Shown piece after piece: positions 8,043 to 64,000 of a stretch of 64,000 bases of DNA (the stretch's first letter is position 1; every line of letters begins with the position of its first letter). The notes under the pieces were generated by a model, which searched no databases, was not told the DNA's origin, and saw only the letters and a list, made by a program, of their open reading frames with translations. Source of the DNA: Ruditapes philippinarum (taxonomy: Eukaryota); assembly GCF_026571515.1 (NCBI RefSeq), contig NW_026857783.1, positions 50,878 through 114,877 on the forward strand, written 5' to 3'. The translations under genes were made by a program, and so were the position numbers.

Positions 8043-8044
<2 letters not shown>

Positions 8045-8092
8045 GAAGTGATCCCTATATGTCGCCACTACTCCGTAGAGGCGACACAAAAA
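8043..8092 (+). mobile_element. Hairpin-bearing tail following the microsatellite (pearl/HINE/Helentron-type 3' region)
   Basis: 'gtgatccctatatGTCGCCactactccgtagaGGCGACacaaaaag' contains a 6-bp stem hairpin. The same architecture (tandem core, then tetranucleotide microsatellite, then hairpin tail) recurs at 25651-26138, 54151-55389 and as a solo tail at 48600-48700. Confidence 0.5.
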
Positions 8093-10606: not shown

Positions 10607-13158
10607 CACGCCCGTTTAACTCACAACGAGTGAAAAATGTCCATCGGTTAAAATGTTGTGAGCAACTGCCGTTCCTCGTTGTGAGCACCCATCTTTGACG
10701 TGTGACACGATAAACAAGGTGAGTTTTTCATATTTTTTTAAGATTACAGACATTTATATAAAATATCGGAATGCAGTTAGCTAGCGATGTGTTTTTCGAG
10801 TATGCACATGTAAAGATATTGCCTGTTGGTCGACAATTTGATGGAAATATCGTGCGACTCAGTCACTCGGGGTAGCTGGAAAACTGGAGATATCTTCTCT
10901 CCGGACCAAATTTAACATCGAAAAACGTCGATTCTGGTGACGTTTTGTGCATTCTAACCTTAAACAGATGCCCACAAGTCTTCAGCGTAAATTATAATCT
11001 GAAAGTCTTCATAGAAACGAAGATATACCCCTTTTTGCTTTAATCCTCGTTGTAGCACCATAACCTCGTTGTGAGCAAGACAAGCGCAGTGCGTGTATGG
11101 TTTCAATATGTATTTCAGATGGTGAAAAATATAATTTTCAATCTACCAAAGCAATTTAAACGTTTTTGCACAGCAGCATTTCCTTGCAAAGACGTTGTGC
11201 ATACCCCAAAGGGAGTATTTATATTAGTTTTGAACTGTCCGTCTGTCAGTCCGTCAATCTGTCCGAAAACTAAACATTGGCCATAACTTCCTTATTAGTA
11301 AACGGATTTGATTCATATTTGAACACAACATTCCTTAGCACAAGACCTTCCTTTACGACCTGTATTTTTTACCTTGGCCCCTGAATGGCCTTACTTGAAG
11401 GTCAAATTGTCCCAAAACTTAAAAATTTGGTCATAACTTCCTTATTAGCATACGGATTCTACTCATATTTTGAAACAACACCCCTTTAGGCAAGACCTTC
11501 AAACTGATCTGTTTTTTTACCTTGTACCCTGAATGACCTTCTAGAACATCCAAAAACTTTAACATTGGTCATAACTTCTTAATAAGTAAGTGGAATTAGT
11601 TCATATTTGGACACAATGCCCCTTTGGACAAGACCTTGTTGAATTCGTGAAGTTGAAATTGTGAATTCATGAAGTTGAAATCGTGAATTCATGAAGTTGA
11701 AATCGTGAATTCATGAAGTTGGAATCGTGAATTCGTGAAGTTGAAGTCGTGAATTCATGAAGCTGAATCATGAATTCGTGAATTCCGTATTTTGAAAACG
11801 GTAATGCACGAAGTTTAAATTGTGAATTCATGAAGATGAAATAGGAAATTCATGAACTTGAAATGTCCCCACCGGTCTTTCGTAATACACACACATGTGT
11901 TTATCCTGAGCTGAAGACTGACCAAGTTATGTAAAACAAGAACTATCACGGTAAGTTGACAATGCCCCTGAAGTGCTGCTTTGTCCTTTGATTTATGGAC
12001 CAGATAGATTATTTGTTTTTGGACAATTAGATCTTCAATGTGAAGGTCATTCAAGGTCAAGGTGAAATAAATATAGGTCAGTTGGAAGGTCTTGTCCAAA
12101 GGGGCATTGTGTCCAAATATGAACTAATTCCACTTACTTATAAAGAAGTTATGACCAATGTGAATTAATTCCACTTACTTATAAAGAAGTTATGACCAAT
12201 GTTAAAGTTTTTGGATGTTCTAGAAGGTCATTCAGGGTACAAGGTAAAAAAAACCAGATCAGTTTGAAGGTCTTGCCTAAAGGGGTGTTGTTTCAAAATA
12301 TGAGTAGAATCCGTATGCTAATAAGGAAGTTATGACCAATTTTTAAGTTTTGGGACAATTTGACCTTCAAGGTAAAGGCCATTCAGGGGCCAAGGTAAAA
12401 AAATACAGGTCCGTAGGAAGGTCTTGTGCTAAGGGATGTTGTGTTCAAATATGAATCAAATCCGTTTACTAATAAGGAAGTTATGGCCAATGTTTAGTTT
12501 TTCGGACAGATTGACGGACTTACAGACGGACAGTTCAAAACTAATATGCCTCCCTTTGGGGTATGCACAACGTCTTGCAAGAAAACGCTGCTGTGCAAAA
12601 ACGTTTAAATTGCTTTGGTAGATTGAAAATTATATTTTCACCATCTGAATTACATATTGAAACCATACACGCACTGCGCTTGTCTTGCTCACAACGAGGT
12701 TATGGTGCTCACAACGAGGATTAAAGCAAAAAGGGGTATATCTTCGTTTCTATGAAGACTTTCAGATTATAAGTTACGCTGAAGACTTGTGGGCATCTGT
12801 TTTAGGTTAGAATGCACAAAACGTCACCAGAATCGACGTTTTCAATGTTAAATTAGGTCCAAAGAGAAGTTGTCTCCAGTTTTCCAGCTACCTCGAGTGA
12901 CTGCGTCGCACGGTATTTCCATCAAATTGTCCACCAACAGGCAATATCTTTACATGTGCATACTCGGAAAACACATCGCTAGCTAACTGCATTCCGATAT
13001 TTTTATATAAATGTCTGTAATCTTAAAAAATTATAAAAAAACTCACGTTGTTTATCGTGTCACACGTCAAAGATGGGTGCTCACAACGAGGAACGGAAGT
13101 TGCTCACAACATTTTAACCGATGGACATTTTTCACTCGTTGTGAGTAAAACGGGCGTG
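10607..13158. mobile_element. Large foldback (FB-like) element: ~1.03/1.07-kb inverted arms (10607-11637; 12088-13158) around a 450-bp spacer holding a 22-bp minisatellite
   Basis: The arms are near-identical reverse complements from 'cacgcccgtttaactcacaacgagtgaaaaatgtccatcgg' to its rc 'ccgatggacatttttcactcgttgtgagtaaaacgggcgtg'. Each arm has 3 copies of a ~150-bp subrepeat ('ggccataacttccttattag..'), a (gaca)-like tract and many 'ctcacaacgag' mini-palindromes. The spacer 11641-11866 is (gtgaattcatgaagttgaaatc)n with EcoRI sites. ORFs 10483-10698, 11071-11286, 11815-12099 and 12436-12621 are spurious. Confidence 0.9.
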
Positions 13159-15059: not shown

Positions 15060-15780
15060 TTGTGACGAATCACCACGAACGTCATGACAATATGAGCCGC
15101 GTCATGACAAAACCAACATAATGGGTTTGCGACCAGCATAGATCCAGACCATCCTAAAACAATTATTTCGTAAATTTGGTAATTGTTTAAAGGAACATTA
15201 TGCCTCAGAAATGATTTTATTTCTATTTCTCTAATCCTTTATTTTTGGTGTTCTGTTTAGTGTTTCTTCAAATGTACTCGTAGGCATATTACTGGACTGT
15301 CTTTTACTACTGCTGCTTTTTGGCAATTACTATTATTTTAATTTTAGTGACTTAGTATTTGGTATGGAAGTCAAAATACTACTTTGTTATCATTTTGCTA
15401 CTTTTATGACAAATAATTTCACTTTCATTGTACTTCTACAGTGAAATGCATCTATATGCTTTTAAACCGTTACTAGTATTTAATCCTTACAAAACTAGTG
15501 TTTACCCTTTCTAAAGAATGGAAAGTATATTCCTTTCTAAGGCAAAATGTGTCTTTAATAAAACAGAAATAAACGACACGATATACACTTTAATCTTTAG
15601 TAAACTCTCCAAAATAGATATAATTAAGCAGATGATTTTTAAATAACAGATGCTGTAAGATGCAATAAATCTTCGTTTGATTTCTAAACGAACGCGTGGT
15701 ATAGTAATTATACTGTCTGACAACAAATCAAAGGGCTGCAAGTACTATTCTCTTCTACTAAAATTACAAATATTTTCGGG
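15060..15780. repeat. Paralogous block A: the uninterrupted copy of the sequence at 27040-27235 + 29010-29420
   Basis: Long near-identical stretches, e.g. 'ggtatggaagtcaa[a/c]atacta', 'gaaatgcatctatatgcttttaaaccgttactagtatttaa', 'aaacgaacgcgtggt[a/g]tagtaattatactgtctgac'. Copy B is split by ~1.77 kb of LINE sequence. Confidence 0.85.
15093..15150. mobile_element. Hairpin-MITE family, truncated copy (left arm only)
   Basis: 'gagccgcgtcatgacaaaaccaacataatgggtttgcgaccagcatagatccagacc' matches the left arm of the full copies at 29715-29931 and 61083-61289. Confidence 0.7.
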
Positions 15781-16139
15781 GTAAGAGTTTAAAGCAGCAT
15801 ACTTCTAGATTCCTGCTAATTCATGCGTTAGTCAATAGTCATACTATAGAAATATGTTGATGAATTCTGCAAGATCAGTTTTTATCGCAGATAACTTGTA
15901 AAATCATAATTTGAATGTTTTAATCCTTTTATCTTTTTTTTTAATTCTTAGTACATTTTCCTCATGCTTGATTTTCTTGAAATATTTTTCGCTCATATGG
16001 AGGCATGCAGCTTTAAACCAAGGCCCGGTATATGCCATGTTGTACACTTCAATAAAACTTGCATATTTATGGATGTATCTTGGACTTTTTTCCGATGAAA
16101 ATGATACTTATATCGGTCAAACGAATTAGATTGATCCCA

Positions 16140-16640
16140 TGTATTTTCTAACTTTAATTTCGTAGGATCATCTACGAGCAAACATAAGAATGTCACTGAG
16201 CCATCGTATTTTCAGCACCTACTGTACAATCGACCATCCAACACACAAAGGGTTCTCTCGATTTTAAATAATGTATTGAAGAGTGTTGAAAATATTTAGA
16301 GGATATTTATGGTGGCTGATTTGTGCCATTCGTTTTTCGCCTGTGTCTCCGCTAAGCGAAAGTTAAAATTGCGGGGGAGCGGAGCGAAAACATGCTAATA
16401 AGCGGGCGCGGGGGAGATAAAAACATTACCGAGCATAAAGCAACTAATGTGATGTAGATATTCAAAAAGCTATATCAATAAATAAATACCATTGAAATCA
16501 ACCAAAAGGTACTACTTGCAAATATTATTCATAATAAAACTTCTAAGTATTTTGGATAATTGAACTTTGGAAGCATCAGTGTCAACAATATCATCTAAAA
16601 TAATACTATACATGTATATATATAATTTATGGTCAAGAAC
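16140..16640. repeat. Paralogous block A': copy of 30890-31740
   Basis: 'gtcactgagccat(t)cgtattt', 'ggatatttatggtggctgatttgtgccattcgttttt(t)cgcctg', 'aaagcaactaatgtgatgtagatattcaaaaagctatatcaataaataaatacc' are shared. Copy B carries an extra ~295 bp at 31200-31495 flanked by a duplicated 'aat[ac]aa[gt]cg' motif. Confidence 0.8.
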
Positions 16641-17663: not shown

Positions 17664-19058
17664 ATGGAAGTTTTACAGCTATTCTTTTATTTTAGGTGTG
17701 TTCTCATAGTGAAAGGACTTAACAACATGCTTACTAATGAATCGTTATCAAATTACAACAATTCAGATCTAGTGTCTACTTTGATAGCAGAACAAAGTCG
17801 AATCTGCCCTTATATTGCTTTGTGTCATGCATCAAACAGCTCTTCTTTTCAATTTGATAGATCTATGAGCAAATTACCGTGCTGCAAGGCATGTTCGTGT
17901 CAGGACACTTGTGTTCAAGAAGGTTCTTGTTGCCCGGATTATTTCAATGCAGAAGGTATAGATTTTAAGGAAAACCAGACATCACATGATAATAATAAAA
18001 AACCTGTTAGTGCCAGTGCTAACACGACGTTAACACATACACAAGAATGTGTTAAAGTACAACATGGTCGAATACAAAATCAAGACGGTTACATGATGGT
18101 AGCATCATGTCCACCCAACTTTGACGACATTGAAGTAAAAAGGAAGTGTGAAATGAAGATACATCATAGCAACCCCTTCGACATAATTGACAACGTCCCA
18201 GTAACATACGAAGATCAAAGACAAACATATAAAAATCAATACTGCGGACAATGTAACTTGCAAGAAGATGTATTTCCTACATTTTGGCATGTAACGCTCG
18301 TGTGTGATATACATTACTTTTCTTTCAAGTCCATTTCCGCGGTTAATCAATTTGAATTCATAGAGGCCGTTCTATTTACAATGCCTGGGAAGTGTAACGT
18401 AGTCTTTGAGTATGAAACTACAAATATCAGCTTAAATGCAGAACTTCGACAGTGTACATACGACACAATGATCGATAACTGCATCAAAGAACATTCGAAC
18501 ACCTTTCTTCAAACAATGTGCAAGAACTATTTCTGGACTATTACGGTGCAAGTCATTTCTGAAAGAAAAATATACAAAAACTATGCATGCCTGCTCTGTA
18601 ATGAAATAAGCTTCAGGGATAGATGTACAGTAAACCAAGAACTCAAACCAGTTGTTATTCAATTTACATCTATTTTGAACATCACTCGGAAACCATCAAC
18701 TTTCGTCGATACTTCGAAAGATGAACAACATATTATCAATCGTTATTTTCCAAACACAGACGGGGAAATTCGCTGCAAAAAAGGATTCGCACATGATATT
18801 AGAAAGGTATTGAAAATAAAAAAAGTTGTATCGAGTATGTCTTTGTACCCATTGCTTTATTCAACAAACACTTTTGTTATGATTATGAAAATACCCGGAA
18901 CTCCATTAAAGTATGCTATTTTACGTGGCGTCCTGAGTCAGGCTTATTGTTTTTCTCGTTTAGGGCACACGCTTTTTATTACTTGGGGACCTTACGCCGC
19001 TTTTCATGGAATGGCACGGAAGTGTCACATTGAAGGTTCCATGATAACCACCGTATGA
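17664..19058 (+). CDS. Uninterrupted 464-codon ORF for a cysteine-rich (27 Cys) protein with N-terminal hydrophobic leader and a somatomedin-B-like motif (CCKACSCQDTCVQEGSCCPDYF). Probably a large exon or single-exon gene for a secreted/extracellular domain
   Basis: It is the longest ORF in the window, and 1.4 kb without a stop is very unlikely by chance at ~66% AT. The C-x-C-x3-C-x5-CC-x-D-Y spacing matches the SMB domain pattern, with N-glycosylation sequons and a hydrophobic C-terminal stretch. Antisense ORFs 18105-18350 and 18432-18662 are spurious. True start and possible splice exits (e.g. AAAG|GTATTG near 18806) are unresolved. Confidence 0.5.
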   Translation: MEVLQLFFYFRCVLIVKGLNNMLTNESLSNYNNSDLVSTLIAEQSRICPYIALCHASNSSSFQFDRSMSKLPCCKACSCQDTCVQEGSCCPDYFNAEGIDFKENQTSHDNNKKPVSASANTTLTHTQECVKVQHGRIQNQDGYMMVASCPPNFDDIEVKRKCEMKIHHSNPFDIIDNVPVTYEDQRQTYKNQYCGQCNLQEDVFPTFWHVTLVCDIHYFSFKSISAVNQFEFIEAVLFTMPGKCNVVFEYETTNISLNAELRQCTYDTMIDNCIKEHSNTFLQTMCKNYFWTITVQVISERKIYKNYACLLCNEISFRDRCTVNQELKPVVIQFTSILNITRKPSTFVDTSKDEQHIINRYFPNTDGEIRCKKGFAHDIRKVLKIKKVVSSMSLYPLLYSTNTFVMIMKIPGTPLKYAILRGVLSQAYCFSRLGHTLFITWGPYAAFHGMARKCHIEGSMITTV

Positions 19059-25650: not shown

Positions 25651-26060
25651 GTTTCAAAGCAATATCTCAAAGGGTTAAGGCAATAAGTGGATTTTACCCA
25701 TATTCAATGTATTTTCTAAGTCAAAAAGGGGCATAATTCTGTCAAAAACCTTGACAGAGTTATGTCCTCTTGTCTGTTGATGAAGGTCGTGATGGTAAAC
25801 AAGTATGGTCAGTTTCAAAGCAATACCTCCAATGGTTTTGAAATAAAGTGAGGTGGTACAAAAAACTTAACCAAGCTCAATACACTTTCTAAGTCAAAAA
25901 AGGGCCATAATTCTGTCAAAAACCTTGACAGAGTTATGTACTCTTGTCTGTAGATGGAGGTTATGATGGTGAACAAGTATGGTAAGTTTCAAAGCCATAC
26001 TTGTAATACTTCTGAAATAAAGTGGGGTGGTACGAAAAACTTAACCAAGGTGTGACGCCA

Positions 26061-27234: not shown

Positions 27235-29010
27235 TAGTTCAAAGTTCAAATTTTATTTACAAATCAGCATTTTGTTTTTGCCAATACATACAAAACATAT
27301 ACATACATAGATCTTGAAATATAGCACACATAACTACAAGATACATATATAAACATTTCAAATATCAGTATTAAATTAACAAATAACAAAGTAGTGTTAA
27401 TAATATATCATTAATTTCGTCTATTTATCATTTGTTCCATGGTATTAGATCGTAAATCAAAAGCTTTTTCCAAGTACTTACTTATCAGTAATAATCTATG
27501 TTTATTATTAGATGACTTGATATAATAAAACTTATTCAGTGTGGGAAAAGATGCATTACGAATAAAAAGTTTTCTTAATTCTGAATAAAATGGACAACAA
27601 AGCAGGAAATGATATTCTGATTCTATCATGTTTCGACTACAAAGTTTACATATTCTCTCATTTCTGTTTAAACCTATATATCTGCCAGTTTCAATTTCTA
27701 GAGAATGGAAACCAAGTCTGAAACATGTCAAACGTTTTCTTAACTTGTCATTTTGTATCAATTTAGATATTCCTCAAAACAAAAATTTGATTTGAAATTT
27801 CTAAAATAAAAGAGTTTTGGCATGTTATTTATTTGCTCATGCCAATTTTGTATAATTGATCTCTAAGGCGTTGTTTAAAAATTAAGCTAAAATCAGAAAT
27901 AACATTATAGTTATGTAACAAATATGAAAATCCTAACTCATTAATAATAGTATGAGCTTGCCTAGCTCAGCATTTATTAACACATTGATCTAAATACATG
28001 CTATATATAGGCGAATGCTGATTATTAACAATTTTATTCCAAATCTTTAATGATCTTTCTTTACACAAAATTGACAAAGGAAATTTACCAAGTTCTCCAT
28101 AGACAGCACAATTAGGAGTTTGTTTTTAACACCAAGTACATACTTATAAAATTTTATTTTCAGTTTATCAATATCTTTATATTTATAAATTCCCCATACA
28201 TCTGAACCATATAACAGAATTGGAGTTATCAGACTATCAAAAAGGTGCAGTTTAGTTTTAACATCTAGCTTTATCTTGTCAAAAATACCCAATAGACTGT
28301 TATATGCTCTAAGGCCTTGCTCTGCAAGAGTCTTAGTTGCTTCAGAAAAGCTACCCGTATAAGAAAATTTTACACCTAAATATGAAAAATTATCAACAAT
28401 ATCTACAAACTGACCGTCAATATTTATACTAAAATTATGTACAGATTTTCTTCTTTCAAAAACACAAACTTTAGTTTTATTAACATTAATTTTAAGCCCC
28501 TATTTTGACGAATAACTATATACATTATCAACTTGAGCTTGCAAGCTCTCTGGACTTGTAGTGAAAAGCACGATATCGTCTGCAAAAAGTAGCAAATATT
28601 TAGACAAGAATTCAAGGTCACTATTCGACATTTTGTTAAGATCTATACATTTTTCAATATCATAAAAAAAGAATAAATAGCAGGGGAGATAATGGCTCTC
28701 CTTGCTTTAACCCAAGAGTTACGTCGAAAAATACTGACATATTCATAAAAGCATTAATTTTTACACATGACACTACTAAGACAAATATATTGCCTTTAAC
28801 ATATTTATCATTTTACAACTAATACCAGTATCTAACAGCTTAATCCATAACGCATCTCTTATAACTGTGTCAAAAGCCTTTTCATAATCAATGAAAATAC
28901 AATAGAGTTTAGAATTTTTGCTAAAACTTTCTGAATTATGGAATGAAGAATAAAAATAGCATCAGAGGTTGATCTCGAATCTCTAAAACCAAGCTGAATA
29001 TATAGTGATA
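27235..29010 (-). mobile_element. 5'-truncated CR1/L2-like LINE fragment (RT plus C-terminal zinc-knuckle), inserted into paralogous block B
   Basis: Minus-strand ORFs give RT motifs: 'SRSTSDAIFILHSIIQKVLAK' (28859-29080), 'LFDSLITPILLYGSDVWG' (28047-28292), and the tail 'LTCFRLGFHSLEIETGRYIGLNRNERICKLCSRNMIESEYHFLLCCPFYSELRKLF' (27411-27761). The 3' end on plus coordinates (27250-27330) carries an (atacata)-type microsatellite, as CR1-like elements do. The flanks 27040-27235 and 29010-29420 are contiguous in block A. Confidence 0.85.
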
Positions 29011-29714
29011 AAGTATTTGGTATGGAAGTCAACATACTATTTTGTTTACATTTTGCTACTTTTATGACAATTAATAACACTTAAAGTGTTACTTCTGCAG
29101 GTGAAATGCATATAACATGCTCTAAAACCGTTACTAGTATTTAAACATAACAAAACTCGTTTTTACTATTCTAAAGAATGAAAAATGTATTCCTTTCTGA
29201 GGCAAAAAGTGCCTTTAATAAAACAGAAATGAACGATACGATATACACTTTAATCTTTAATAAACTCTCCAAAATAGATAAAATTAAGCAGATGATTTAC
29301 TGTAAGATGCTATAAATCTTCGTTTGATTTCCAAACGAACGCGTGGTGTAGTAATTATACTGTCTGACCTCAAATCATAGGGCTGCAAGTATTTTTCTCT
29401 TCTACTTCACTTTAAATAACAAATATTTTAACTTTGTTGGTTTGCCGTGAAACCAAACAAACAAATTCAAATAATGTGATTTGTTCAATTAGTGATTACC
29501 TTCTTTATTTGTGAGAAGAAGCGCTCAATGAGTACGTTACCAGATGTGAGTATGGTGATCAGTGAATATTGTTCACAGGTTGAGTAGTTTGCATATGATG
29601 AGTATTATTCACTTTTTAACATTGTTTATGATGCAAAAAATGTTCAATCCATCATGTATATGTGGTGACGTTAAGTCACGGAAAGACAAGTGTTCAGTGA
29701 GCTTTTTCGTGAAA

Positions 29715-29931
29715 TGAGCTGCGTCATGACAAAACCAACATAGTGCGTTTGCGACCAGCATGGATCCAGACAAGCCTGCGCATCCACGCAGTCCGATCAG
29801 GATCCAAGCTGTTCGCTATCAGTCTCTCTACATGTAATGGGGTTGGTAAACGAACAGCATGGATCTTGATCAGACTGCGGGATCCATGCTGGTCGCAAAC
29901 GCACTATGTTGGTTTTGTCGTGACGCGGCTG
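29715..29931. mobile_element. Hairpin MITE, complete copy
   Basis: 'tgagctgcgtcatgacaaaaccaacatagtgcgtttgcgaccagcatggatccagac...' folds back on its rc '...ggatccatgctggtcgcaaacgcactatgttggttttgtcgtgacgcggctga', with arms ~100 bp. Both flanks read 'gaaatg'. ORF 29743-29967 is spurious. Confidence 0.85.
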
Positions 29932-30154
29932 AAATGCAGTTGTTTGTTGCAGCAGATACAGAAATAATGGCATTGCAGCAGAAACAACAAGTTCTTAACG
30001 CTGAGTATTGGAACTTGAAACTTGTAAACTTGTAGTCAGACAGCGTTTACAACTGCACGACAGCGTCAGAGTTGATCTTTGATGTTTGTTTATAATGAAT
30101 ATCACATTAATTTTCAACAGATTAGTTTAAATTTTAAAAGCTAAAAAGTTGATC

Positions 30155-30675
30155 TCTCCAGTACTGTGGCATAGAGGTGACATTGTCAATTTTATTTTAT
30201 CTCGTGGCCACGACTTATTATCTTGAGGCCTCAAGATATTATATCGTGACCACGACTTATTATCTCATGGCCACGACTTATTATCTCAAAATATTATCTC
30301 GTGGCCACGAGTTACTATCTTGTGGCCACGAGATAGTAAGTCGTGGTCACAAGATAATAAGTCGTGGCCACAATATAATAAGTCATGGCTACGAGATAAT
30401 TATGTCGTGGCCACGAGATAATAAGTCGTGGCCATAAGATAATAACTCGTGGCCACGAGATAATATCTTGAGGCCACAAGATAATAAGTCGTGGCCTCAA
30501 GATAATTACTCGTGGCCACAAGATAATAAGTCGTGGCCACGAGATAATAACTCGTGGCCACTAGATTATAAGTCGTGGCCACGAGATAATATCTGGAGGC
30601 CACAAGATAATAAGTCGTGGCCACGAGATAAAATATAACTGCAAATGTCACCTCTATGCCACCGTACTCCAGGGG
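30155..30675. mobile_element. Palindromic-minisatellite foldback/MITE: ~30-bp TIRs around a self-complementary array of 22-bp units
   Basis: TIRs are 'tctccagtactgtggcatagaggtgacatt' and 'aatgtcacctctatgccaccgtactccagg'. Inside, (tcgtggccacgacttattatc)n switches to its rc (gtcgtggccacgagataataa)n at a symmetry centre near 30335-30345, so the whole ~520 bp is one long hairpin. ORFs 30177-30693 on both strands (LVATTYYLVA..) are spurious. Confidence 0.85.
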
Positions 30676-32029
30676 CTCTCTTTTTACTGTCATTTCGTAA
30701 GTATTTTTGTATCTTTACGCGTACCTTTAAACTTCATAAAATCATAAGTGTATTCCACAAAACGTTTACTTTAGTTTTTTCTTAAATTTACGTTAAAATA
30801 GTTCGTAATCTTCAATGCAGGTTTTAAGAATTATTCAATAAGTGGCATTTTTGAAATATTTGATAAAATAAACTGTTCTATTAGACAATCAAACTTTATC
30901 AAACTAAACTTTAATATCGTAAGGTCATCTACGGACACCGAAGAATGTCACTGAGCCATTCGTATTTTTAGCGCCTGCTGTACCATCGGCCATCCATTAC
31001 ACAATGGGTTCTCTCGATTTCAAATAATGTATGCATAGAGTGGTAAAAAGAACCAATAGCTTTTATATTTTGAAAATATTTAGGGGATATTTATGGTGGC
31101 TGATTTGTGCCATTCGTTTTTTCGCCTGCGTTTCCGCCATGGAAAAGTAAAAATGGCGGGGCGCGGAGCGAAAACACGCTAATCAATCGGAACATCCTTG
31201 GCTATTATCTATAAATAACCTCAGAAACAATACGGATTGAAAGTAGTTCTACCACGTATAATAATGTACTGTTTGCTTTTGTGTCTATGAATTCACTTAT
31301 TTTAGGTGGACTTCTAATACATATTTTGAAAATCAATTTGTCAATAACTCCCATCATTAAAATAATATTTGTTTACATGCGTAGGTAAGACCAAAATACC
31401 GCATCCGTTCTTTGTATTAATTCATACCATTGTGTTCGAGGTCCTTAATCGAAGAATGACGAAAAGGGCCGAAAATTTGCGATTTCACTTAAATAAGTGC
31501 GCACGCGGGGGAGATTAAAACATTCACCGTCGCCTCACGGAGCGAAAAGCAACTAATGTGATGTAGATATTCAAAAAGCTATATCAATAAATAAATACCC
31601 TTGAAATCAACTAAAAAGTACTACCTGCAAATATTGTTTATAGTTAACTTTTTAGTATTTGGAAAAATTGAACTTTTGGAAGCATCAGTGATCATTGTCA
31701 ACAATCTCATCTAAAATAATACTATATATATATATATATATATATCCAGAATACGAACCAAATACAACGATCCGTTAGCGGCGCATTTTTATACGAACGA
31801 CCACACAGTAAATGATTTTTCAATAATGGGGCTTGAAAAGCTATACGGGAATGAACAATACAGAAAAACAATAGAAAATTTGTGGAAAAATAAATTAAGA
31901 ACCTATAGACCGTATGGAGTTAATACAAAAGAATAACGCGGCAGACGGCAACCAACGCCACGGCGGGCGTCGTTCATTGACGTTACGTCACTTCCATTGT
32001 TTTGTTTTGATATATTTGTATATAGGGTT

Positions 32030-41879: not shown

Positions 41880-42020
41880 AAAAGTTACCAAATTTAAAAA
41901 GTAACCCAATTTCAATAGTTACCACATTTCAAAGGTAACCAAATCTGAATAGTAACCAAAATTAATAAGTTCATTTCAACAATTACAAAGCTCAAATAGT
42001 AACCAAATCCTGGTAATATT
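41880..42020. repeat. ~20-bp minisatellite (agt[t]accaaattt[c]aa, ~7 copies) ending 4 bp before the kringle exon acceptor
   Basis: aaaagttaccaaatttaaa / aagtaacccaatttcaat / agttaccacatttcaaa / ggtaaccaaatctgaat / agtaaccaaaattaat ... / agtaaccaaatcctggtaatatttcag|. Confidence 0.7.
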
Positions 42021-42024
42021 TCAG

Positions 42025-42276
42025 AATGCTTCAGTGCCTATTCAAAACAATATAGTGGCACTACAACTACGACGTACGACGGACACACGTGCCAGCGATG
42101 GGATTCACAAACTCCCCACACACATACACGAACTCAACCCATCAGGTTTCCAGAGAGATCTGTGACAGATGCTGCCAACTATTGTAGAGATCCCGACGGC
42201 TTAGGGTTACCATGGTGTTACACAACAGACCCCAAAATTAGGTGGCAGTATTGTGGCATTTACGAGTGTCCGGGTG
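42025..42276 (+). CDS. Complete kringle-domain exon (phase 1-1) inside the last CTLD intron
   Basis: With one base carried in it translates, with no stops, to 'ECFSAYSKQYSGTTTTTYDGHTCQRWDSQTPHTHTRTQPIRFPERSVTDAANYCRDPDGLGLPWCYTTDPKIRWQYCGIYECPG'. That is the kringle signature with all 6 Cys (CQ.W, NYCR[DN]PD, PWCYT, W.YC). Acceptor tttcag|AA, donor GGTG|GTAAGT. Confidence 0.7.
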
Positions 42277-42950
42277 GTAAGTGGCTGTTAGATAATATTC
42301 TCTAACAAATGAAATTGAGACAGTGAAACTTGGAAGAAAAACCCAAGAGAAATAAATGTTACATGAACTCGAACTTGACGTCATTCTAATATAGTTTATA
42401 CGCTATAATCATTTTAACTTTACATAGTATCGCAGAAATTTTTCTGCGCGGCAATATTTTGTCACAATTTTCTGCAATTATATCGCAAAAAGTTCAAAAG
42501 TTTCAATTGAAAAAAATATGTACCATCGAAATCGTCAAACATTTATTTCTCATTCTTGTGTACAAAAGATCTTTATTAAATGCATCTCGTACTCTATCTA
42601 GTTTCGTTTTCAATTTCAGGATTTAAAAAAGGTCATTTAAACTCCTTTTTGTATTTGATGTAAAAAAAACTGTCAAAATGTCCGAAAAAGGTGGTGTGAA
42701 GTAAGGAGGTCATTGTACATTGTTGAGATCATAAAATATATATACACAGTTGCAAAACCTATATCAGACTCGAGTTGCGTCTCGTCCAATGTAGGTTTAA
42801 CAGCTGTGTAATCATCCAATAGAATTCAGTATTGTACTCAACACTATAAATTTACGTCATGATATTATGTCTAATATCGTACAAGAACGCATCATACATG
42901 AAGGCATGATACCTTTTTATCAATCTTTAAAAACGTTTGTTTCCTTCCAG

Positions 42951-43159
42951 GGAACTACTGGGCCGGAATGGTCATGCTGGAAGATGTCTGGAAATGGATC
43001 CACACGGAGACTGAACTTGATCAAGGTTACACTAACTGGTATCATGACCTAAACTGGGAATATTGCGGGTCATTGATTTCGGAGGTAAACTATCAATGGA
43101 AGAGAAGCGAATGTACACATACGGCAATGTACATTTGCGAACAGACGAAATATACATAA
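42951..43159 (+). CDS. C-type lectin gene, terminal exon: CTLD C-terminal half (..NYWAGMVMLEDVWKWIHTETELDQGYTNWYHDLNWEYCGSLISEVNYQWKRSECTHTAMYICEQTKYT*)
   Basis: Strong acceptor ttccttccag|GG at phase 1. It contains WIGL-like, W.W.DG-like, 'NW....EYC' and 'W....C....YICE' CTLD hallmarks and ends at TAA 43157-43159. The overlapping ORF 42867-43052 is the wrong frame. Confidence 0.8.
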
Positions 43160-49525: not shown

Positions 49526-49689
49526 TATAATAGACAGTTACTTTTAATTGTACAGGTATATTTGCTTGGTTTTTTAACATGTTATTTTTTGTATTTTATA
49601 ATTTTTGCTCTTTTTAAGCCAATGGCCAAGTAATATCTGATGATACCCATGTACCCTGAAACATTCGTGTTCTTCAGTAATCATATCCT

Positions 49690-50445
49690 ATACATTCATT
49701 TTCTTACTTAGTCACGCCCCTTACAATTATTTTCATGGTCATGCCATGTAGATCTATTTTTCTTACTTTTCATAGACTGTACATCCATATTCTTACACGG
49801 TCACCTTCTTTACAAAGATGTACTTGGTCACGTCCTGTACATCTATGTTCTTACTTGTAATATCCTATACATTTATGTTCTTACATTGCCACGTCCCTTA
49901 CAAACATGCGCTTGGTCACGTCCTGTACATATATATTCTTACCTGTAATGTCCTATACATTTATGTTCTTACATGGCCACGTCCCTTACAAACATGTACT
50001 TGGTCACGTCCTGTACATCTATGTTCTTACTTGTAATATCCTATACATTTATGTTCTTACATTGCCATGTCCCTTACAAACATGCGCTTGGTCACGTCCT
50101 GTACATCTATGTTCTTACTTGTAATATCCAATACATTTATGTTCTTACATTGCCATGTCCCTTACAAACATGCGCTTGGTCACGTCCTGTACATCTATGT
50201 TCTTACTTGTAATATCCTATACATTTATGTTCTTACATTGCCATGTCCCTTACAAACATGCGCTTGGTCACGTCAAGTACATTTATATTCTTACTTGTAA
50301 TATCCAATACATTTATGTTCTTACATGGTCACGTCTCTTACAAGCATGTACTTGGTCACGTCCTGTACACATATATATTCTAACCTGTAATGTCCTATAC
50401 ATTTATGTTCTTACAGGGTCACGACTCTTAAAAACATATAATATA
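49690..50445. repeat. 88-bp satellite (~8.5 copies), with an extra diverged ~1.3 copies at 51950-52065
   Basis: Unit 'cacgtcccttacaaacatg[ct][ga]cttggtcacgtcctgtacatctatgttcttacttgtaatatcctatacatttatgttcttacattgc'. ORFs 49818-50592, five overlapping, are spurious. Confidence 0.9.
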
Positions 50446-51039: not shown

Positions 51040-51560
51040 CTGTCACAGAACTGGCATTTTCATTTCAATACATCTAAATTCTGGAAACAAAGTGATCCCT
51101 CGGAAACATTAATTACAACAAATTAACATAAGAATTTCAGACTCGGTTTGATTGAGTCTGTACATGAGGGATAATGTATAAGTGCAACATCCCTCACACC
51201 CCCTAGCACCGGCTGAGCGGTACTCAATTCTCAACACTTTATAGTGTTGGCATCAATGACCCCGAAGGACCAGAAAATATAACAACACTGAACTTTTTAC
51301 GGCTGCCACACGGCACTTGACACCTGCTGTTGTGAAGTACAAAATTCTGGAAACAAAGTGATCCCTCGGAAGCATTAATTACAACAAAATAACATAAGAA
51401 TTGCAGACTCGGTTTGATTGAGTCTGTACATGAGGGATAATGTATAAGTGCAACATCCCTCACGCCCCCTAGCACTGGCTGAGCGGTACTCAGTTCTCAA
51501 CACTTTATAGTGTTGGCATCAATGACCCCGAAGGACCAGAAAATATAACAACACTGTAGT
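51040..51560 (+). mobile_element. Tandem pair of ~290-bp elements whose 3' ends are hairpin + 7 nt + CTAG (Helitron-terminus-like), diverged relatives of the 4309/19134 repeat
   Basis: '..cagactcggtttgattgagtctgtacatgagggataatgtataagtgcaacatccctcaca(c)cccctagcac[ct]ggctgagcggtactc..' at 51131-51240 and 51391-51500. ORF 51239-51475 is spurious. Confidence 0.55.
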
Positions 51561-51790: not shown

Positions 51791-54150
51791 ACTAGAGCAA
51801 GTTTAAAACAAAATTTTCTTGCAATATAGTTGTAATAATATTCACTATAGTATGTTTTGGAATGGAAATTCTTATATCACTATATTGGCGTGCATTACAA
51901 TTTTTTAACATATCATTAACATAGCAAGACCAGTTCTTACATGATCTACATGTACTTGGTCACGTCCTGCACATATATATTCTAACCTGTTATGTCCTAT
52001 ACATTTATGTTCTTACATGGCCAGTCCTTTCAAACATGTACTTGGTCACGTCCTGTATGTTCTTTTTACACTTAAAAGAAAAAGTTTTTATATGTATAAA
52101 ATTATGCTTATAAAAATTTTTCAAACATCAAAGAAAATGTAAAATATTAAATGCAAATATTTGTGCACATTATATGTAATCATTAAAATCTATACATTCA
52201 TTTCGTACTGAAAGTTTGACTTATACTTTATAGAAAATAAATTTTTGATTTACCTCCCTTTTTTACATGAAATGTTAAATTCGGTAATATTTTTATATAT
52301 TATGCTTCTTGGAACTTACATATTGATAAATCTTAATTGGAGCATCATATTGATGATATAAAACCATAAAAATATTGTGTAACAGGAAGGATCTTTAACA
52401 AAATCATTGCAAAAAGTCTTTTAAAATTACATTATTCTAAGCATGTTACAACCGAGGTATCTCGTCTTATTGGAAACGTAGAGCAGGATTTTTGACAATT
52501 TATTTAATACATATTATATACCTCACCAATTTTTACAAACTTACTTGATCTGAAATATTTATCTAGTTATATCTACCGCCCATGCATTTTGGTAAAAATA
52601 GAGTTTAAGACAATTTATTGAACACACCATATATATCTGACCAATATCTACATGGTTATTTGATCTTGAATATATCATTTACTCAATCTGCTGGCAAATA
52701 TGGCAGATCGGTCTCTTTTTTTATCTTAAGTTTCAGAAATCTAACCGAAAGATTTCTCTCCATCACCAGCATATATTATCTTTATTAGCAACTAGTTGAT
52801 TAAGCCTTTTCATGCAACATCCCCTGAACACGCCAATTTTAAATCAATGAGTAGCTTAATTGGTGGAAATAATCATTTTAACTGCATATTATATTTTATA
52901 AAAAGAGATTTTTTTTCCAATGAAAAATATAAAATATCGTGCGCTTCATCACCATAACATTTTATTTTTGACGCATTCTTGTTAGTTTCTATAAATGTGA
53001 TAGTCTTATGTGATGTGTGACACGAAAAAAAGTCAAGATATTTGTATTTGATAAAGGAAGCAATTAAATCAAGTTATGTTTTAAATCATATAATTATAAT
53101 ACTTTTTTCGTAATCTTACGTATGTTATTAATCTTATAATGCAATATAAACTACCTTGAAATTTCTGGCAAAATGAAAAAATAAAACACTTACATCTTTT
53201 TAAACATGTATTTCTTTTTTCAAAGCATATTTACATATAACAAACATACAATAAAACTATAAAAAATGTCATTTAATATGTATCATAAAAGGGTGGTTGC
53301 TATACTTTTCCGTATAGTAATTTATCAAGTATGCTTCTGTATTAATTCGATATGGTGAAAAGATTACATAATTTAGTTTCGATAAAAGTGCGAATACTTG
53401 GAAGGTTTGTAATAGAAAAATTAAACGTATCTTTAAAGAAATAGAGTCCTACGGAAAAACCCCTTTTATTTTAATATGGGTTTTAAAACTGTTTTATTTT
53501 CCCTTTTAAAAAATTTAAATTTTTCTGAAGTAAATAAAAATTTTTTATCTAAAGATAAAACTCAAAAATAGGGTTTTTCACCCTTAACAAAAAAAAATAA
53601 GACAAATTTTTGTGAATTAAACTTGACAATGTTTTTAAAAAAAAGACCGTTTTCCTAACTTAAAAATTATGCAAACCTTAAAAGAAAAATAACACAAAAA
53701 AGAAAAAAATAGTGAATTTGAAAAAAAAATTGGAAAAAAGGAAAAATTCCCGAATTTGAAAAAGTTTCCATTTTCCCCTAAATTTAAAACCTTTAGTATT
53801 TTTAAAAAAATGGGGGCAAAACAAATAAATTGGAAAAATACAGTGGAAACTTAAATTTCAGAAATAAATTTATTATTACCCTTTAAACTTAATTTTGATG
53901 CGCGCTTTTTATTAGACACTTTAATTGTGGTAATGAAATATCCAAAAATAAAATGTTAAACTCTTTAAAACTGGCAAATTCTCTACAGGGGCGAGGTGAA
54001 CAATTTCTGAGTTGACCAGTTTAAATATCAACTATACCTTATACATATGTATACATTTAATTAGACAGTCTGTGTCGCAGCGTTTTAGGAAACTCAAAAT
54101 GTGAAACATTTTATTCAGGCCCATACAAAGAGAGTTATAAAACATATAAA

Positions 54151-55389
54151 CAAGGGGGCCATGATGGCCCTAGATCACTCACCTGACCCATTGAACTCGT
54201 CCAAACAATTACCTAGACAAGCATTCTGACCAAGTTTCATAACAGTTGAGTCAAAAATGTGACCACTAGAGTGTTAACTAGGATTATCCATATCTGTGTT
54301 GCCTAGTTTTTTACCCAGGTGACCTATATTCGAACTTGACCTAGAAATCATCAAAACAAACTTTCAGACCAATTTACAGGATATTGGGATCAAAACAGTA
54401 GCCACTTGAGTGTTAACAAGATTTTTCTATTTTTAGCTCCAGAGCCCTAGTTTTTCATCCGAGATGACCAATGTTCGAACTCTTCCTTGCAATTACCTAG
54501 ACAAGCAACCTGACCAAGTTTAATGACACTCGAGTCAAAAATCTGACCGCTAGAGTGTTTACAAGGTTTGTCTATTTTTAGCCCTGGTGACCTAGTTTTT
54601 CATCCGAGATGACCAATGTTCGAAATCATCCGTACTATCACTTAGACAAGCATCCTGGCCAAGTTTGATGTTGATTGAGGCACAAATGTGACCGCTAAAG
54701 TGTTAACAATGTTTTTTTTTCTATTTTTAGCTCTGGTGACCTAGCTTTTCATCCTAGATGATCCATGTTGAAATCATTTGAGCTATCAACAAGATAAGCA
54801 TCCTGAGTAAGTTTGATGATGACTGAGGCAAAAATGTGACCGCTAGATTGTTAACAAGGTTTTTAGTCTTTTAGCTCCGGTGACCTAGTTTTTCTAGACA
54901 GCAAGCTGACAAAGTTTGATGATGATTGATGCAAAAATGTGACCGCTTGAGTGTTAACAAAGTTTTTCTATTTTTAGCTCCTGTGGTCTAGTTTTTCATC
55001 CGAGATGACCCTCGTTCTTGCTCATTCAAGCTATCACCTAGACGCACTCCTGTGACCTAGTTTTTCATCCGAGATAACCCATGTTCGAACTCATTCGAGC
55101 TGTCAACTAGATAAGCATCTTGAGCAAGTTTGATGATTATTGACGCAAAAATGACCGCCCGGGTTTTAGCAAGGTTTTTCTAGTTTTAGCTCCGGTGACC
55201 TTGTTTTTCATCCGAGATGACCCTCGTTCGTACTCATTCGAGCTATCAACTAAATAAGCATCCTGAGTAAGTTTTATGATGATTGAGACAAAAATGTGAC
55301 CGCTAGAGTGTTAACAAACAAGTGTGGACGGACGACGGACAGACGACCCTAAAAGCTCACCCTGAGCAAGCTCAGGTGAGCTTAAAAAC
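54151..55389 (+). mobile_element. 1.2-kb tandem-repeat element (pearl/HINE/Helentron-associated type): 5' palindromic head, ~8 units of ~135-150 bp, (GGAC)n-like tract, hairpin tail '..agctcaccctgagcaagctcaggtgagcttaaaaac'. The insertion is proven by an empty paralogous site
   Basis: The flanks 53330-54150 and 55390-55700 are collinear with 63040-64000, where 'acatataaa|gaaaac|tatttaacc' (63763-63786) is uninterrupted. Here it reads 'acatataaa[CAAGGGGGCCATGATGGCCC....CAGGTGAGCTT]aaaaactatttaacc'. The repeated core motif is 'ctagtttttcatccgagatgacc'. Confidence 0.85.
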
Positions 55390-57832
55390 TATTTAACCAA
55401 TACTTAAGGTATAACAAAAGTTATTGTGATTGAACAGAAATGAAAGAGTGGTTATGAAGAAGATACTAAGTATTTCCAATGTTGTTAATCAAAATTTGCC
55501 AACATATTTAAAGTTTGTACTTCAACCATAACTGATATCGAATGTATACATGTATATAGGCCTATACGAAATATAACTGGAAAACAGCCAAATTCTGATA
55601 CTCTTTGAAAACGGCGTCACTACTGACTATCATTTTCATTACCTTTTTGATAGTTCTTTAGTTTTTGCCATAAATGATTTGTACTTCTATCAAGATACAT
55701 AACATACATGCTGGTTTTCTTAAAATTTATAATTGATGTTTTAAGAAGACGAATTGGTTGAAAAGGGTATCCGAAATACCATGATATATCCGTCACTCGT
55801 AACATAATAAAATATGCATTTCATTTCAATTCTTCAGTTAAAATTTATTAGTTGTACAGTTCAGTCAAATAATGAGTCATTTTTAAATCAATATTACTAT
55901 TAATGGCATGTTCATGTCTGCTAATCGGTCAAGTTTGTTTGATATTTTGTCCTTAACTTTTCGCACCATGTAGGGTACCTTATCTATGTTATATTCTTAA
56001 GGGAACATTCGACCGAAGTAAGTAGATTTTTACACTTAGGAATTTTATGAATAGTAACTAAAGAATTTCTTAAAAAAAACTTATGGAAATCTAATGAATA
56101 TTTTAAGGAAAACCTTAAAAAGTAAGAGAATGTTTTCCCTAAGGAGCTGATCTACTGATTTCTTACATCCAGCGTGGCGTTGTTTACAAGCTGATTTTCT
56201 ATCAGATCAGATCTATTGACACAGACCATTTAACAAACACGACTGTTTTGTGTGTTATTCAGACTATAGCTATACCTTAAATATAGTTTAAATGTTTTCG
56301 TAGAAACACCTGGTTTAACAGCTTGCCTTTTCCTTCTTTTTTTTCCTTTTCCAAATGTATATATAAATGCAAGGTCATAACCACTGATTTATAATCGAAC
56401 AGTTGTAATATTTGTAAAGTGTATTGTATTATAAAAAGAATAGGAAAGGTGAGCATTCTTGAAAATGAATATGCTTTTTAAAAGATTTTAAACTGGATTT
56501 AATGTTTTATCTTTAAATGCCAAGTTTGACAGATATTAAATTGAAAAGTATCGTATTTCGACTCTTGTTCATTATTATTTTTCTTTTGCTAAATTGAACG
56601 TGTAATATCATATTATTAATATTTTAAAATTAGATGGCTACAGAAGCAGGAACACCCAGTTATCAGGATAAAGAACTACGGCAGGTAATGTGCAATTCTT
56701 CTCAATTTTCTCGTAAATTTAAGAATAATGTTGTTTTATTTCGAAGTTCTAGAAATAAGTTAAAAAAGCGATTAAAGTTTAAATATAAAAGAGTCAAGAA
56801 TCACAAAAGGAATCATAACTCTTGTAAAATTGCCTGTTGAACTATAGACATTATGATCATATGATCAAAAGTTAAAAAACTGTATTCAGTTATAACTCGA
56901 GAGCAATGTTTGTCGTACAGTACTATTTAGAAAATACAATACAAATTAAATTTCATCTAATTATAAGAAGTTAAAAATGACGTTGGACAAAACAATATGA
57001 AAGGGTTTCAAACTATGATAATATCATATGAATATAAGGCACATACAAAATTTATCCATGTAATGTTGATAACATTCTGACCTCAGGTTGCCTGATTTCG
57101 TTACGTGCCAACATTCGTTGTCCATTCTTCCGAGGAAGCTGCAATAAAAACACTTCATACACAACACAAAAGTCTTGACGAATGCAAATGTTATGTCATC
57201 ATTTCCATTTCACAACATTAACTTGTTTATTCTTTTGTTCATTTTGTAAATCAAGTTTCGTTTCGTTCAAAGCCTTGATAATGGCCGTGTTGTCATTACG
57301 GTATTTCAGGTAAAATATCTGGAAATTGTTATTCCGACATATGCTTGAATATATTATGTATTTGATCGGTTAAAGTCGTTTTTTATAAAAAAAAAACTTT
57401 GTTGCTTGGAATATAAATGAAAACCTAATAAATTAAATATCGTCAAAATTTTGATTGTTAATTTTTAATTACTTTGCAGAAAAAAGTTTTGGGGGGTCAC
57501 AGACTTATGACTGAAGCAATATTCCAAAATCAGAAAAACGATCAATTGAAATAAGTTTTTTTATCTGGCAGTAACAAGGAAAGGGTTAAAACTCTAATTT
57601 TAGGACAAAAGGAAAGTACGAGTTATACCATAAATAATTCATTGTACAACTTAATTTGCATCTCTTTTGAATTTGGAGGTTTGTTCTGGACATCCATCGT
57701 GTGCTTGTATATATTCTGTTTCGTAATTATTTCATTCACCTTTTGTTTTGCAACATCTATTGATGTAACGCAATTTAAAATGAGCGCTCTTATTTTCAGA
57801 ATGAGAGGGTAGAGAAAGGACAGAACAGGTTC

Positions 57833-61289: not shown

Positions 61290-64000
61290 TTTATTTATGG
61301 ATTGTATGCAATGTAAAAACTGATTAATTATTAGATAGTAAATTGTTACTTTGTTGCACATTAGACATTGAACATGTTCAAATGAATTATTTTCAAGCAG
61401 ACGATTTAATCATGATTAAGAACAAATTTGCGATTTTATTAAGGAAAGTGCTCAAGTATCGAATAAATATGCTGTTTCAAAGTCCGTATATGGTCATAAA
61501 ACGAATAAATGATTTACCGAATCGGATGCAATTTCCTTGAAATGTTTATCAATCAATCAATCAATATTTTTTATTTCCCTTAAGATATGCAATATAGATA
61601 CATGACAACATGAGGTAAATAGAAAAATAAGAATAAATCGCGGCACTTATCAAATCAAATATCCACATGAAAGCAAATGCGGAAAAATAATTTATAATGA
61701 CTAGTAAATTTAAATAATGTCATTATCAAAAACAATGAAAAATAAAGATAAATCTTACATAAGAAGGGGGAAAAAGAAAATGAAAAAGACAATATATCTA
61801 GGGGCCAATAATTAATTACCTGTAAAGTTAAATGGAGGCCACGTTTAACTGAGCGGCAAATCACACAGTGATTGAACTAAAAATGCAAGCTATGAGTACA
61901 TCTATTACCCAGGAGGATGTTTGTCATATTTGTTTCGTAGCTTAATGTTTTACAACTAATTACAGTCTGGTTAGCATATTTAAAAAGTAATAAGAGTGGA
62001 GCTAAGAGGGCGGTGACATGTTTTTCTTCAAATACATACTTGGCGGTGTCAACACAGGCCAAAAATGATGTACGAAGTGACCTTCCTTCATCAATAAGCT
62101 TAAAAAGGACCATATGACCTTTTTAGTTTTGGATCACGGTAAATCTTGAACTTACTGATTTACTACGCTGCATTACTTAAAAAGTTCATAATACCACTTT
62201 TATTTTTTAAATGGTAGACCAGCTTAAACAAGTGTTGTGTGGGGCGTATACATTTATCTCAATTTTCATTTAAACATATTTGAGGTTAAGTTTTTTTACT
62301 AAGTTTATTAACATTTTGTTTTCTTACCAATTTTAAAACGTATAAATCCACATGCAATTTAACAATAAAAGTTACTTAGGCCTCATTCAAACCCTTTTGA
62401 AAATATCATTTTCTAAACCCTTAGCCTACCTTTAGTTAGCTCTGCTTTTAAACCGGAACAGTACATTAAAATTGTAAGGGATTTCAGGGATTAAAACATA
62501 AAATTTGAGTTGCCGAAATAATGGATTCTTCTCAGACTGTACGGATATGCTAGCAAGCCTAGCTCTATCCTGGTATCAAACGCAATGTATTCAGCAAATA
62601 CTTATTCAGTTCAAACTAATCAGATTTAATGATCAATAACGGTTTATTTGCTTTTTTGAAAATATGTATAAACATCTGGCTTAATACAAATGAACTATGT
62701 TATTTCTTCTAAGCTTTACAACTTATGTTTATATACAGATAAATTGTAATATGCATTTTGATTTAAATACAGTGTTAATAGGAAATGAACACCGAGGGTT
62801 CTATAAAATGTTTGTCATTAATAGACTTCCGTAGTCTTTCATTTTGACAATTTTATCTATACATTCTAAATTTATTCACTTTTATTGTAGATAAAGCTCC
62901 TACAAGTAAAAGCTGGTGATTAGCATTAAAGGGAAAGGTTTAATAAAGACCAAATGAACGACGATGTTTGCAATTTCCGAACCCCATGTTCTGGTCGTCA
63001 TAAGTCACTGCGTAATTTTTCAAGTATTTTTACAGTATTAATCTGATTTTTAAAGGATTACATAATTTAGTTTTGATAAAAGTGCGAATACTTGGAAGGT
63101 TTTTAATAGAAAATTATATTAAACGTAACTTTGAAGAGTCTTATATTTTGCAAAAACCCTAGTTTGCTTTGTTTCGTCCTTACAATATCTAATATGGGTT
63201 TTACTCTGTTTTATTTCTTTTAAATTTAGTGTTTTCTAAATGAGTAAATATAACGACGATAAAACACAAAAATAGGTTGAGACGGTTAACAAAAACAATA
63301 TAGACAATTCTGTGAATTAGCTTGACAATGTTTTAAAATAGACCTGTTTCCTAGAGTTACAAATGATGCAAACCTTCCTAGAAAATAACACAAAAAGAAC
63401 AGAATATGTGAATTTGAAAGAATTGAACAAGGAAAATTCTGATAGAAATGTTTCCATTTCATAGTTTAAAACCTCAGTATTCAGTGAGGCAAAACGCATG
63501 TAGATCTTGATTTTCAAAAATAGATTTATATACTTTATCTCATTGATGTGCGCTTCTTACTAAATACTTTAACAGTTGTAATGAAATATCCAAAAATAAA
63601 ATGTTAAACTCTTTAAAACTGGCAAATTCTTTACAGGGGCGAGGTGAACAATTTCTGAGTTGACCAGTTTATATCTTAACTATACCTTATACATTTATAT
63701 ACATCGGTGTCGCTGCGTTTTAGGAAACTTTTTATTCAGTTCAAACAAAGAGAGTTATTAGAACATATAAAGAAAACTATTTAACCAATACTAAAGGTGC
63801 TAAAATAGTTATTTTGATTGAAAAGAAATGAAAGATTTGCGATCAAGAAGATATTTAGTATTTCCTATGTTGTTAATCAAAATTTACCAACATAATTAAA
63901 GTTTGTACTTCAACCATAACTGATATCAAATCTATCAAATTTTGATACTCATTAAAAACGGCCTCCATGACTATCATTTTCATGACCTTTGTGACAGTCC

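Follow-up and report, generated by a model that had tools for sequence, protein, structure and literature searches.

An inserted tandem-repeat element with the features of a non-autonomous Helentron in one of two paralogous blocks of Ruditapes philippinarum DNA

Two paralogous blocks lie about 9.7 kb apart in the stretch of Ruditapes philippinarum DNA analysed here (64 kb in all, 32% G+C, hereafter the window), forming one of its several local duplications, and the first of them carries about 1.23 kb that the second lacks. Is this additional sequence a mobile element that integrated into one block, and if so, to which class of transposons does it belong? The original prediction, made from the letters of the sequence, was that the two blocks represent a filled and an empty site, that the pair proves transposition of a tandem-repeat element occupying 54151-55389, and that the element is related to the Helentron-associated pearl and HINE elements of bivalves. 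It proposed pairwise alignment of the two blocks and a search for conserved termini in other copies as checks, and named a deletion scar in the empty copy as an observation that would tell against insertion.

The filled and the empty paralog

Comparison of 53200-55900 with 62800-64000 by blastn, reproduced against the whole window, gave three collinear matches between the filled paralog (copy 1) and the empty one (copy 2). The left block pairs 53317-54153 with 63012-63774 at 72% identity, and the right block falls into two parts, 55385-55547 with 63773-63935 at 88% and 55589-55654 with 63936-63998 at 82%. No further copy of the block was found by blastn against the whole window. On the plus strand, the left flank of copy 1 thus comprises 53317-54150 (blastn and homopolymer comparison) and its right flank 55384-55654 (blastn and global alignment), and copy 2 extends over 63012-63998, where it runs into the end of the window and is hence incomplete. 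Copy 2 is continuous across 63771|63772, the insertion point within catataaa|gaaaac, and it is there that copy 1 carries the additional sequence. Once 1,233 bp are removed, global alignment pairs ACATATAAACAAAACTATTTAACC in copy 1 with ACATATAAAGAAAACTATTTAACC in copy 2, two sequences of equal length that differ by one substitution, and shows neither a target-site duplication (TSD) nor a deletion scar at the junction.

The boundaries of the element are defined to within ±2 nt, as both junctions lie within A runs, and by alignment alone four placements of the 1,233-bp interval fit equally well. In comparison with other copies, described below, the conserved element sequence starts at CAAG (54151), so that the best boundaries are 54151-55383, with the element on the minus strand. 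The following nucleotides, 55384-55389 (aaaaac), are flank and have a counterpart, gaaaac, in copy 2. The collinear paralogy and the uninterrupted state of copy 2 were therefore as predicted, and so was the start of the interval; its end has to be moved inward by 6 nt. As for proof of transposition, the indel is indeed clean, and the empty site is a paralog diverged to 72-88% identity, which makes the comparison a standard but indirect test.

A segment of the left flank, 53430-53870, is the window's extreme in homopolymer content, with 63% of its bases in runs of at least 3, against a window mean of 26% ± 6%. When aligned to copy 2, it resembles the copy 2 sequence with many of the runs lengthened. 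This could be an artefact of unpolished long reads or of assembly, and such inflation would account for the identity of the left flank being as low as 72%.

The comparison also bears on the target. Read on the minus strand, the empty site is aaatagTTTTcTTTatatg and the filled site aaatagTTTTT[AAGCTC...CCCCTTG]TTTatatg, where the brackets enclose the element. The single C of the empty copy (G on the plus strand) is absent from the filled copy, in which T stands; the paralogs being 12-28% diverged, the simplest reading of this difference is a plain substitution in one of the two. The integration point is within, or at the edge of, a T run, and a T|T target, which fits three of the four placements, is compatible with this reading of the one paralogous empty site of the window copy. 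The proposed T-run target, said to be compatible with the T-T preference of Helentrons, thus holds as regards the T run, and the exact T|T position is not fixed within ±2 nt.

Anatomy and classification of the element

The Helentron convention places the element on the minus strand, and its plus strand corresponds to the orientation in which pearl and DTC84 are described. Read 5' to 3' on the minus strand, it consists of the T run of the flank, a 5' subterminal inverted repeat (subTIR), a 4-nt spacer, a complementary inverted repeat (IR), a (GTCY)n microsatellite, about eight 145-bp repeats, a 3' subTIR, a GC-rich palindrome and CCTTG, followed by the T's of the other flank. The 5' subTIR, AAGCTCACCTGAG (55371-55383, minus strand), directly follows the flanking T run, and the same motif is present in ten metagenome copies and in Dreissena. 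Four nucleotides downstream, the IR CTCAGGGTGAGCTT (55353-55366, minus strand) is complementary to it, and the two pair as a 5' hairpin (55353-55383) of 13 bp with a DNA folding energy of -11.2 to -11.5 kcal/mol (z -4.7 to -5.7), a value that none of 200 shuffled sequences equalled. The degenerate microsatellite, (GTCY)n on the minus and (GGAC/GACG)n on the plus strand, occupies 55326-55347, and sister copies carry the same motif in the same place.

The central tandem array (54190-55319, minus strand), established by TRF and by alignment of the units, contains about eight units of about 145 bp, which were delimited by anchoring on the motif GAGTGTTAACAAGG. The first unit is incomplete, two others measure 103 and 212 bp, and pairwise identity among the units averages 74% (range 59-86%). 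TRF reports a 145-bp period from 54206 together with overlapping periods of 103 and 69 bp. Beyond the array, the 3' subTIR TCAGGTGAG (54178-54186, minus strand) lies between 36 and 27 nt from the 3' terminus. It forms a 9-nt perfect inverted match between CTCACCTGA (54178-54186) and TCAGGTGAG (55372-55380), which extends to 11/12, and a match of this length was reached in 23 of 5000 trials in which the two 60-nt ends were shuffled. The 3' palindrome, GGGCCATCATGGCCC on the minus strand and GGGCCATGATGGCCC on the plus strand (54156-54170), is perfect and stands 5 nt from the 3' terminus; by itself its folding energy is unexceptional (z about -0.8). The terminal motif itself, CCTTG (54151-54155, minus strand), corresponds to CTCTTG in sister copies and in a second element of the window, at 7119.

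All the parts that had been recognised in the original prediction, namely the palindrome, the tandem units, the (GGAC)n tract and the hairpin, are thus present, and it is their orientation that required correction: the so-called hairpin tail is the 5' end, with subTIR, IR and microsatellite, and the so-called palindromic head corresponds to the 3' palindrome. Coding capacity was not found, as no stop-free stretch in the element exceeds 57 aa and every unit of the array carries stops. ARAGORN predicted no tRNA gene in the element, an Rfam scan of it returned no credible match, and blastn detected no second copy within the 64-kb window. Inspection by eye of the window's stop-free translations of at least 55 aa revealed no Rep- or helicase-like open reading frame, and no Rep or helicase family appeared among the nine window translations run against Pfam. 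A full-text search of papers with 13-15-nt strings from the termini and repeats matched only unrelated primers.

The features by which HINEs are defined can be followed through the element from end to end. HINEs have a pair of subterminal inverted repeats of 11-15 nt, at the 5' end 2-4 nt from the terminus and at the 3' end tens of nt inside, to which the pair described above (9 nt perfect, 11/12 when extended) corresponds; a short IR of the DINE-1/Cg_HINE type adjoins the 5' subTIR, here at 4 nt; a palindrome lies near the 3' end, past the 3' subTIR; the left flank has a microsatellite, which in HINEs is often GTCY, and is joined by the optional central tandem repeats; and the insertion into an A/T run without a TSD agrees with the T-rich or TT target of HINEs, its exact position being fixed to ±2 nt. 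The canonical Helitron, with 5'-TC and 3'-CTRR ends, a hairpin about 11 nt from the 3' end and an A|T target, does not describe this element, with its T(T)AGCTC... and ...C(T/C)CTTG termini and its insertion inside a T run. Judged by its structure, the insert is very probably a non-autonomous Helentron on the minus strand, that is, a HINE of the class that includes the bivalve elements pearl, DTC84 and Cg_HINE. Its assignment to the Helentron superfamily would follow from this structure and from the re-classification of pearl in the literature.

Among known systems, Cg_HINE of Crassostrea gigas (Vojvoda Zeljko et al. 2020), compared by its description, has an identical module order. Its left flank consists of a 5' subTIR of 11-13 nt, an IR that complements it at a distance of 1-12 nt, and a microsatellite of the type GTCY/GTCC/GTCK, and is followed by a satDNA-like array of units of about 150-180 bp (about 145 bp in the window element) and by a right flank of about 60 bp in which a 3' subTIR precedes a palindrome (PMC7492417). 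Cg_HINE inserts at T-rich or TT sites without TSD, and its empty sites are paralogs, often inside other repeats (PMC7492417). The window copy differs from its own sister copies in that it is without the left-flank segment ATTCAAGTATCC that they keep.

Pearl of Crassostrea virginica and DTC84 of Donax trunculus were described as tandem-repeat "MITEs" with a putative AA TSD, in which an L flank with a subterminal inverted motif, core repeats, an ACGG microsatellite and an R flank with a terminal inverted motif follow one another, with A's at both ends (PMC3879986). Pearl was later re-classified as a non-autonomous Helentron. In orientation, flank motifs, ACGG-type microsatellite and A's at both ends, these elements agree with the plus strand of the window element, a likeness of architecture; they differ in the AA TSD proposed for them, against which the empty site in the window speaks. 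Moreover, the ordered core repeats of DTC84 number no more than five and each terminates in a 12-nt palindrome; the window element has about eight degenerate units.

DINE-1 and the mite element HINE-Mo share the same layout in another host phylum and without sequence similarity: subTIRs of 12-15 nt with the 5' one 2-4 nt from the end, an adjoining IR, a microsatellite, optional central repeats, a short 3' stem-loop and no target modification (Thomas et al. 2014, PMC4067079). The T's that flank HINE/DINE-1 insertions vary in number, which makes the exact boundary ambiguous (PMC4067079). For DINE-1 and HINE-Mo, unlike for the window family, an autonomous Helentron partner is known. Taken with the descriptions in PMC3879986, PMC7492417 and PMC4067079, the architecture supports the pearl/HINE, Helentron-associated interpretation from which this analysis started.

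Independent copies and competing readings

Since the window contains no second copy, a pseudo-translation of the core repeats was used as a protein query to reach related loci. It matched 81 database "proteins"; every named one is a hypothetical protein of Dreissena polymorpha, and the others are ENA or JGI entries. Two JGI contigs (sample 3300049158) show 78-84% nucleotide identity with the element, and a complete copy occupies 1316-2086 of one, L001. Nine further contigs came from scanning metagenomes with CCTGAGCNAGCTCAGGTGAGCT; the same 5'-module pattern had no match in prokaryotic genomes and none in viral contigs. The 5' module AAAGCTCACCCTGAGCNAGCTCAGGTGAGCT is thus present in ten metagenome contigs (L001 and the nine), and the window copy makes eleven. 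On the plus strand, AAAGCTCACCCTGAGCNAGCTCAGGTGAGCT is followed in 11/11 copies by 4-9 A's and then by wholly unrelated sequence, and in 10/11 it is preceded by a (GACG/GGAC)n tract and a short spacer.

The 3' module is common to six copies with unrelated flanks, those of the window, L001, L004, L005, L006 and L008, and reads on the plus strand as two or three A's, CAAGRG, a GGCC-stem palindrome, a 6-nt spacer and GCTCACCTGAG, the last being the 3' subTIR, which in sister copies is perfect over 11 nt. The plus-strand ends that recur in independent copies are therefore a head CAAG... and a tail ...GGTGAGCT. Four metagenome elements are complete and have both ends in common, and they measure 771, 694, 1651 and 1305 bp, against 1,233 bp in the window, so that the length of the central array varies between fixed ends. 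A/T runs flank 13/13 of the 5' ends and 7/8 of the 3' ends. Conservation of the termini had been set beforehand as the test by which the insertion would stand or fall, and the boundaries of the indel proved to coincide exactly with the termini of independent copies.

The palindrome is conserved in pairing more than in sequence. Extracted directly, as the MAFFT alignment misplaced one gap there, its stems are GGGCCAT/ATGGCCC, AGGCCA/TGGCCT, AGGCCCA/TGGGCCT and GGGCCT/AGGCCC in different copies, and pairing is always kept. Compensatory changes preserve the stem in seven other copies, a pattern that argues for selection on structure.

The complete copy in L001 allows a second, less exact test of the target. 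It sits within a single unit of a host tandem repeat, of which six nearby units continue across the same point and read TTTCACAGAAATGATCAC or a close variant. The filled unit differs from these by 0-2 A's at the junction, which excludes a TSD longer than 2 nt. In the 3.6-kb contig L004 (Ga0209567_10014560), the 5' end of one element lies about 460 bp from the 3' module of another, and an additional degenerate palindrome-bearing fragment is present, which shows how densely such elements can be packed.

In Dreissena polymorpha, CM035916.1 (locus L012) contains a 1,132-bp element at 2281-3412 and a repeat-less element of 247 bp at 5873-5627, each with both modules. As in the window family, the 5' end comprises AGCTCACC, a hairpin and GGTGAGCT adjoining a T/A run, and the 3' end comprises the subTIR GCTCACCTGAG, a GGCC-stem palindrome and the terminus CTCTTG; the core repeats are related as well. 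The differences are that the inner half of the 5' hairpin has another sequence, still paired, and that the loop of the palindrome differs. The element at 5873-5627 has no room for an array of repeats, and both its 3' subTIR and the arm of its 5' hairpin have degenerated.

The core repeats of such elements have entered the databases as "hypothetical proteins" of up to 456 aa (gene models at 2501-4440 of L012 and database proteins P0002-P0081), the C-termini of which translate even the microsatellite and the 5' hairpin (...TDGRTD...KSSP...). These repeat-derived proteins are almost certainly spurious, and no Pfam family was found in them above threshold. The translation of the core repeat keeps the frame PIFEL..IIKTN.LTKF..D..KNVT.RVLTRF from the window's species to Dreissena polymorpha, and within single database proteins what appears, by reading only, to be the same unit recurs in a second reading frame. 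It seems improbable that the repeats of about 145 bp are more than passenger satellite, whether as a captured coding fragment or as a module needed by the transposition machinery. Should they be so, the deep conservation of the core and of both ends would point to a single Helentron lineage that has persisted for very long in bivalves. A coding origin is unsupported, given that Pfam returned no match and every unit in the window contains stops.

These observations suggest the following history for the non-autonomous Helentron proposed here. The two paralogous blocks would first have arisen by local duplication. A copy of the element would then have integrated into the A/T run of copy 1 without a TSD, and copy 2 would have retained the state before insertion. 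By what is understood of Helitron and Helentron biology, the element may owe its mobilisation to a Rep/helicase(-endonuclease) protein supplied in trans by a Helentron, and may have moved as a rolling-circle, single-strand intermediate; the hairpin of 5' subTIR and IR would be the putative start signal and the 3' subTIR and palindrome the putative termination signal. The window copy appears old and is probably immobile, because its repeats are 74% alike, its 3' subTIR is eroded to 9/12 and the ATTCAAGTATCC segment is missing.

Alternatively, the insert could be a cut-and-paste MITE with an AA TSD, as pearl and DTC84 were originally read. This would accommodate the inverted repeats near both ends, the A's at both ends of nearly every copy and the putative AA TSD described for DTC84 and pearl (PMC3879986). 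We nonetheless regard it as very unlikely. The filled and empty sites are equal in length after removal of the element, so that there is no 2-nt gain; the inverted repeats are asymmetric, one being terminal and the other lying 27-36 nt inside and adjoining the palindrome, which is the layout of a Helentron and not that of a pair of TIRs; and the number of A's on the tail side is not constant, ranging from 4 to 9.

The direction of the indel can also be questioned, in that the element may have been ancestral to both paralogs and lost from copy 2 by precise excision or deletion. Two sequences alone give no direction to an indel, and Helitron excision has been reported in other systems. A random deletion, however, would not match the conserved termini exactly and without a scar, and precise excision would still amount to transposition of the same element, leaving its identity unchanged; we thus hold loss to be highly unlikely. 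A SINE-like retroposon on the plus strand, inserted with a short poly(A) tail by LINE machinery, is extremely improbable, for although every copy ends on that strand in ...GGTGAGCT and a run of 4-9 A's and the window holds LINE reverse-transcriptase fragments, only the A run is compatible with a SINE. Of the pol III-derived head (tRNA, 5S or 7SL) and the TSD that characterise SINEs, the scans found no tRNA-like head and no credible Rfam match, and the empty site shows no TSD. Moreover, A's stand before the opposite end too, and HINEs are where one meets paired subterminal repeats, a GTCY microsatellite and, on the minus strand, a conserved 3' palindrome. DTC84 and pearl are without complete pol III A/B boxes according to their authors (PMC3879986).

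Read as a HINE, the insert is an ordinary transposon insertion: tandem-repeat-carrying HINEs are already abundant and well described in bivalves, paralogous empty sites are a routine means of defining them, and the result is of little weight beyond annotation. It does offer a clean, internally controlled case, with filled and empty sites in one 64-kb window, and a pearl-like insertion into an A/T run without TSD supports the Helentron re-classification over a MITE with an AA TSD. The termini are also usable as search seeds, which in the plus (pearl/DTC84) orientation are CAAGRG-GGCC palindrome-GCTCACCTGAG and AAAGCTCACC-hairpin-GGTGAGCT, and which could serve annotation of the family and the hunt for an autonomous partner in bivalve genomes.

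Other elements and genes in the window

A second HINE-like element, of a different family, occupies 7119-8087 and is likewise on the minus strand in the Helentron convention. Its 5' part consists of a T run and a GTGTCGCC...GGCGACA hairpin, (GTCT/GTCC)n tracts stand on both sides of 157/342-bp repeats, and its 3' part comprises the subTIR GGCGACACA and the terminus GCTCTTG, after which comes TTTT. With the main family it has in common the 3' end CTCTTG and flanks of A/T runs. This element interrupts a LINE-like frame (WFDKDCSKFRKEYY... / KEFNKKFKSF...), and a reverse-transcriptase fragment lies at 8558-8761.

An inverted duplication, 10607-11607 and 12157-13158, is 95% identical and flanks a 22-bp tandem array at 11640-11864. 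Its arms contain tandem repeats of about 150 bp adjoining GTCCGTC-type microsatellite remnants, and they probably represent a third pearl-like element, present twice, head to head. Four other short tandem arrays, at 2016-2585, 25713-26049, 49683-50437 and 51076-51556, have periods of 161, 174, 88 and 266 bp, respectively.

Host sequence is represented by a kringle-domain exon at 42003-42302 (E 9e-23) and a C-type lectin exon at 42902-43156 (E 2e-5), both on the plus strand, which point to a gene of the metazoan host some 11 kb upstream of the element. Another pair of paralogous blocks, 15345-16624 and 29003-31740, is 78-84% identical. An open reading frame at 17664-19058 adjoins the duplicated blocks and encodes 464 aa of Cys-rich sequence, whose homologues are only metagenome proteins carrying PF28443; together, the block pair and this reading frame suggest a locally duplicated gene family.
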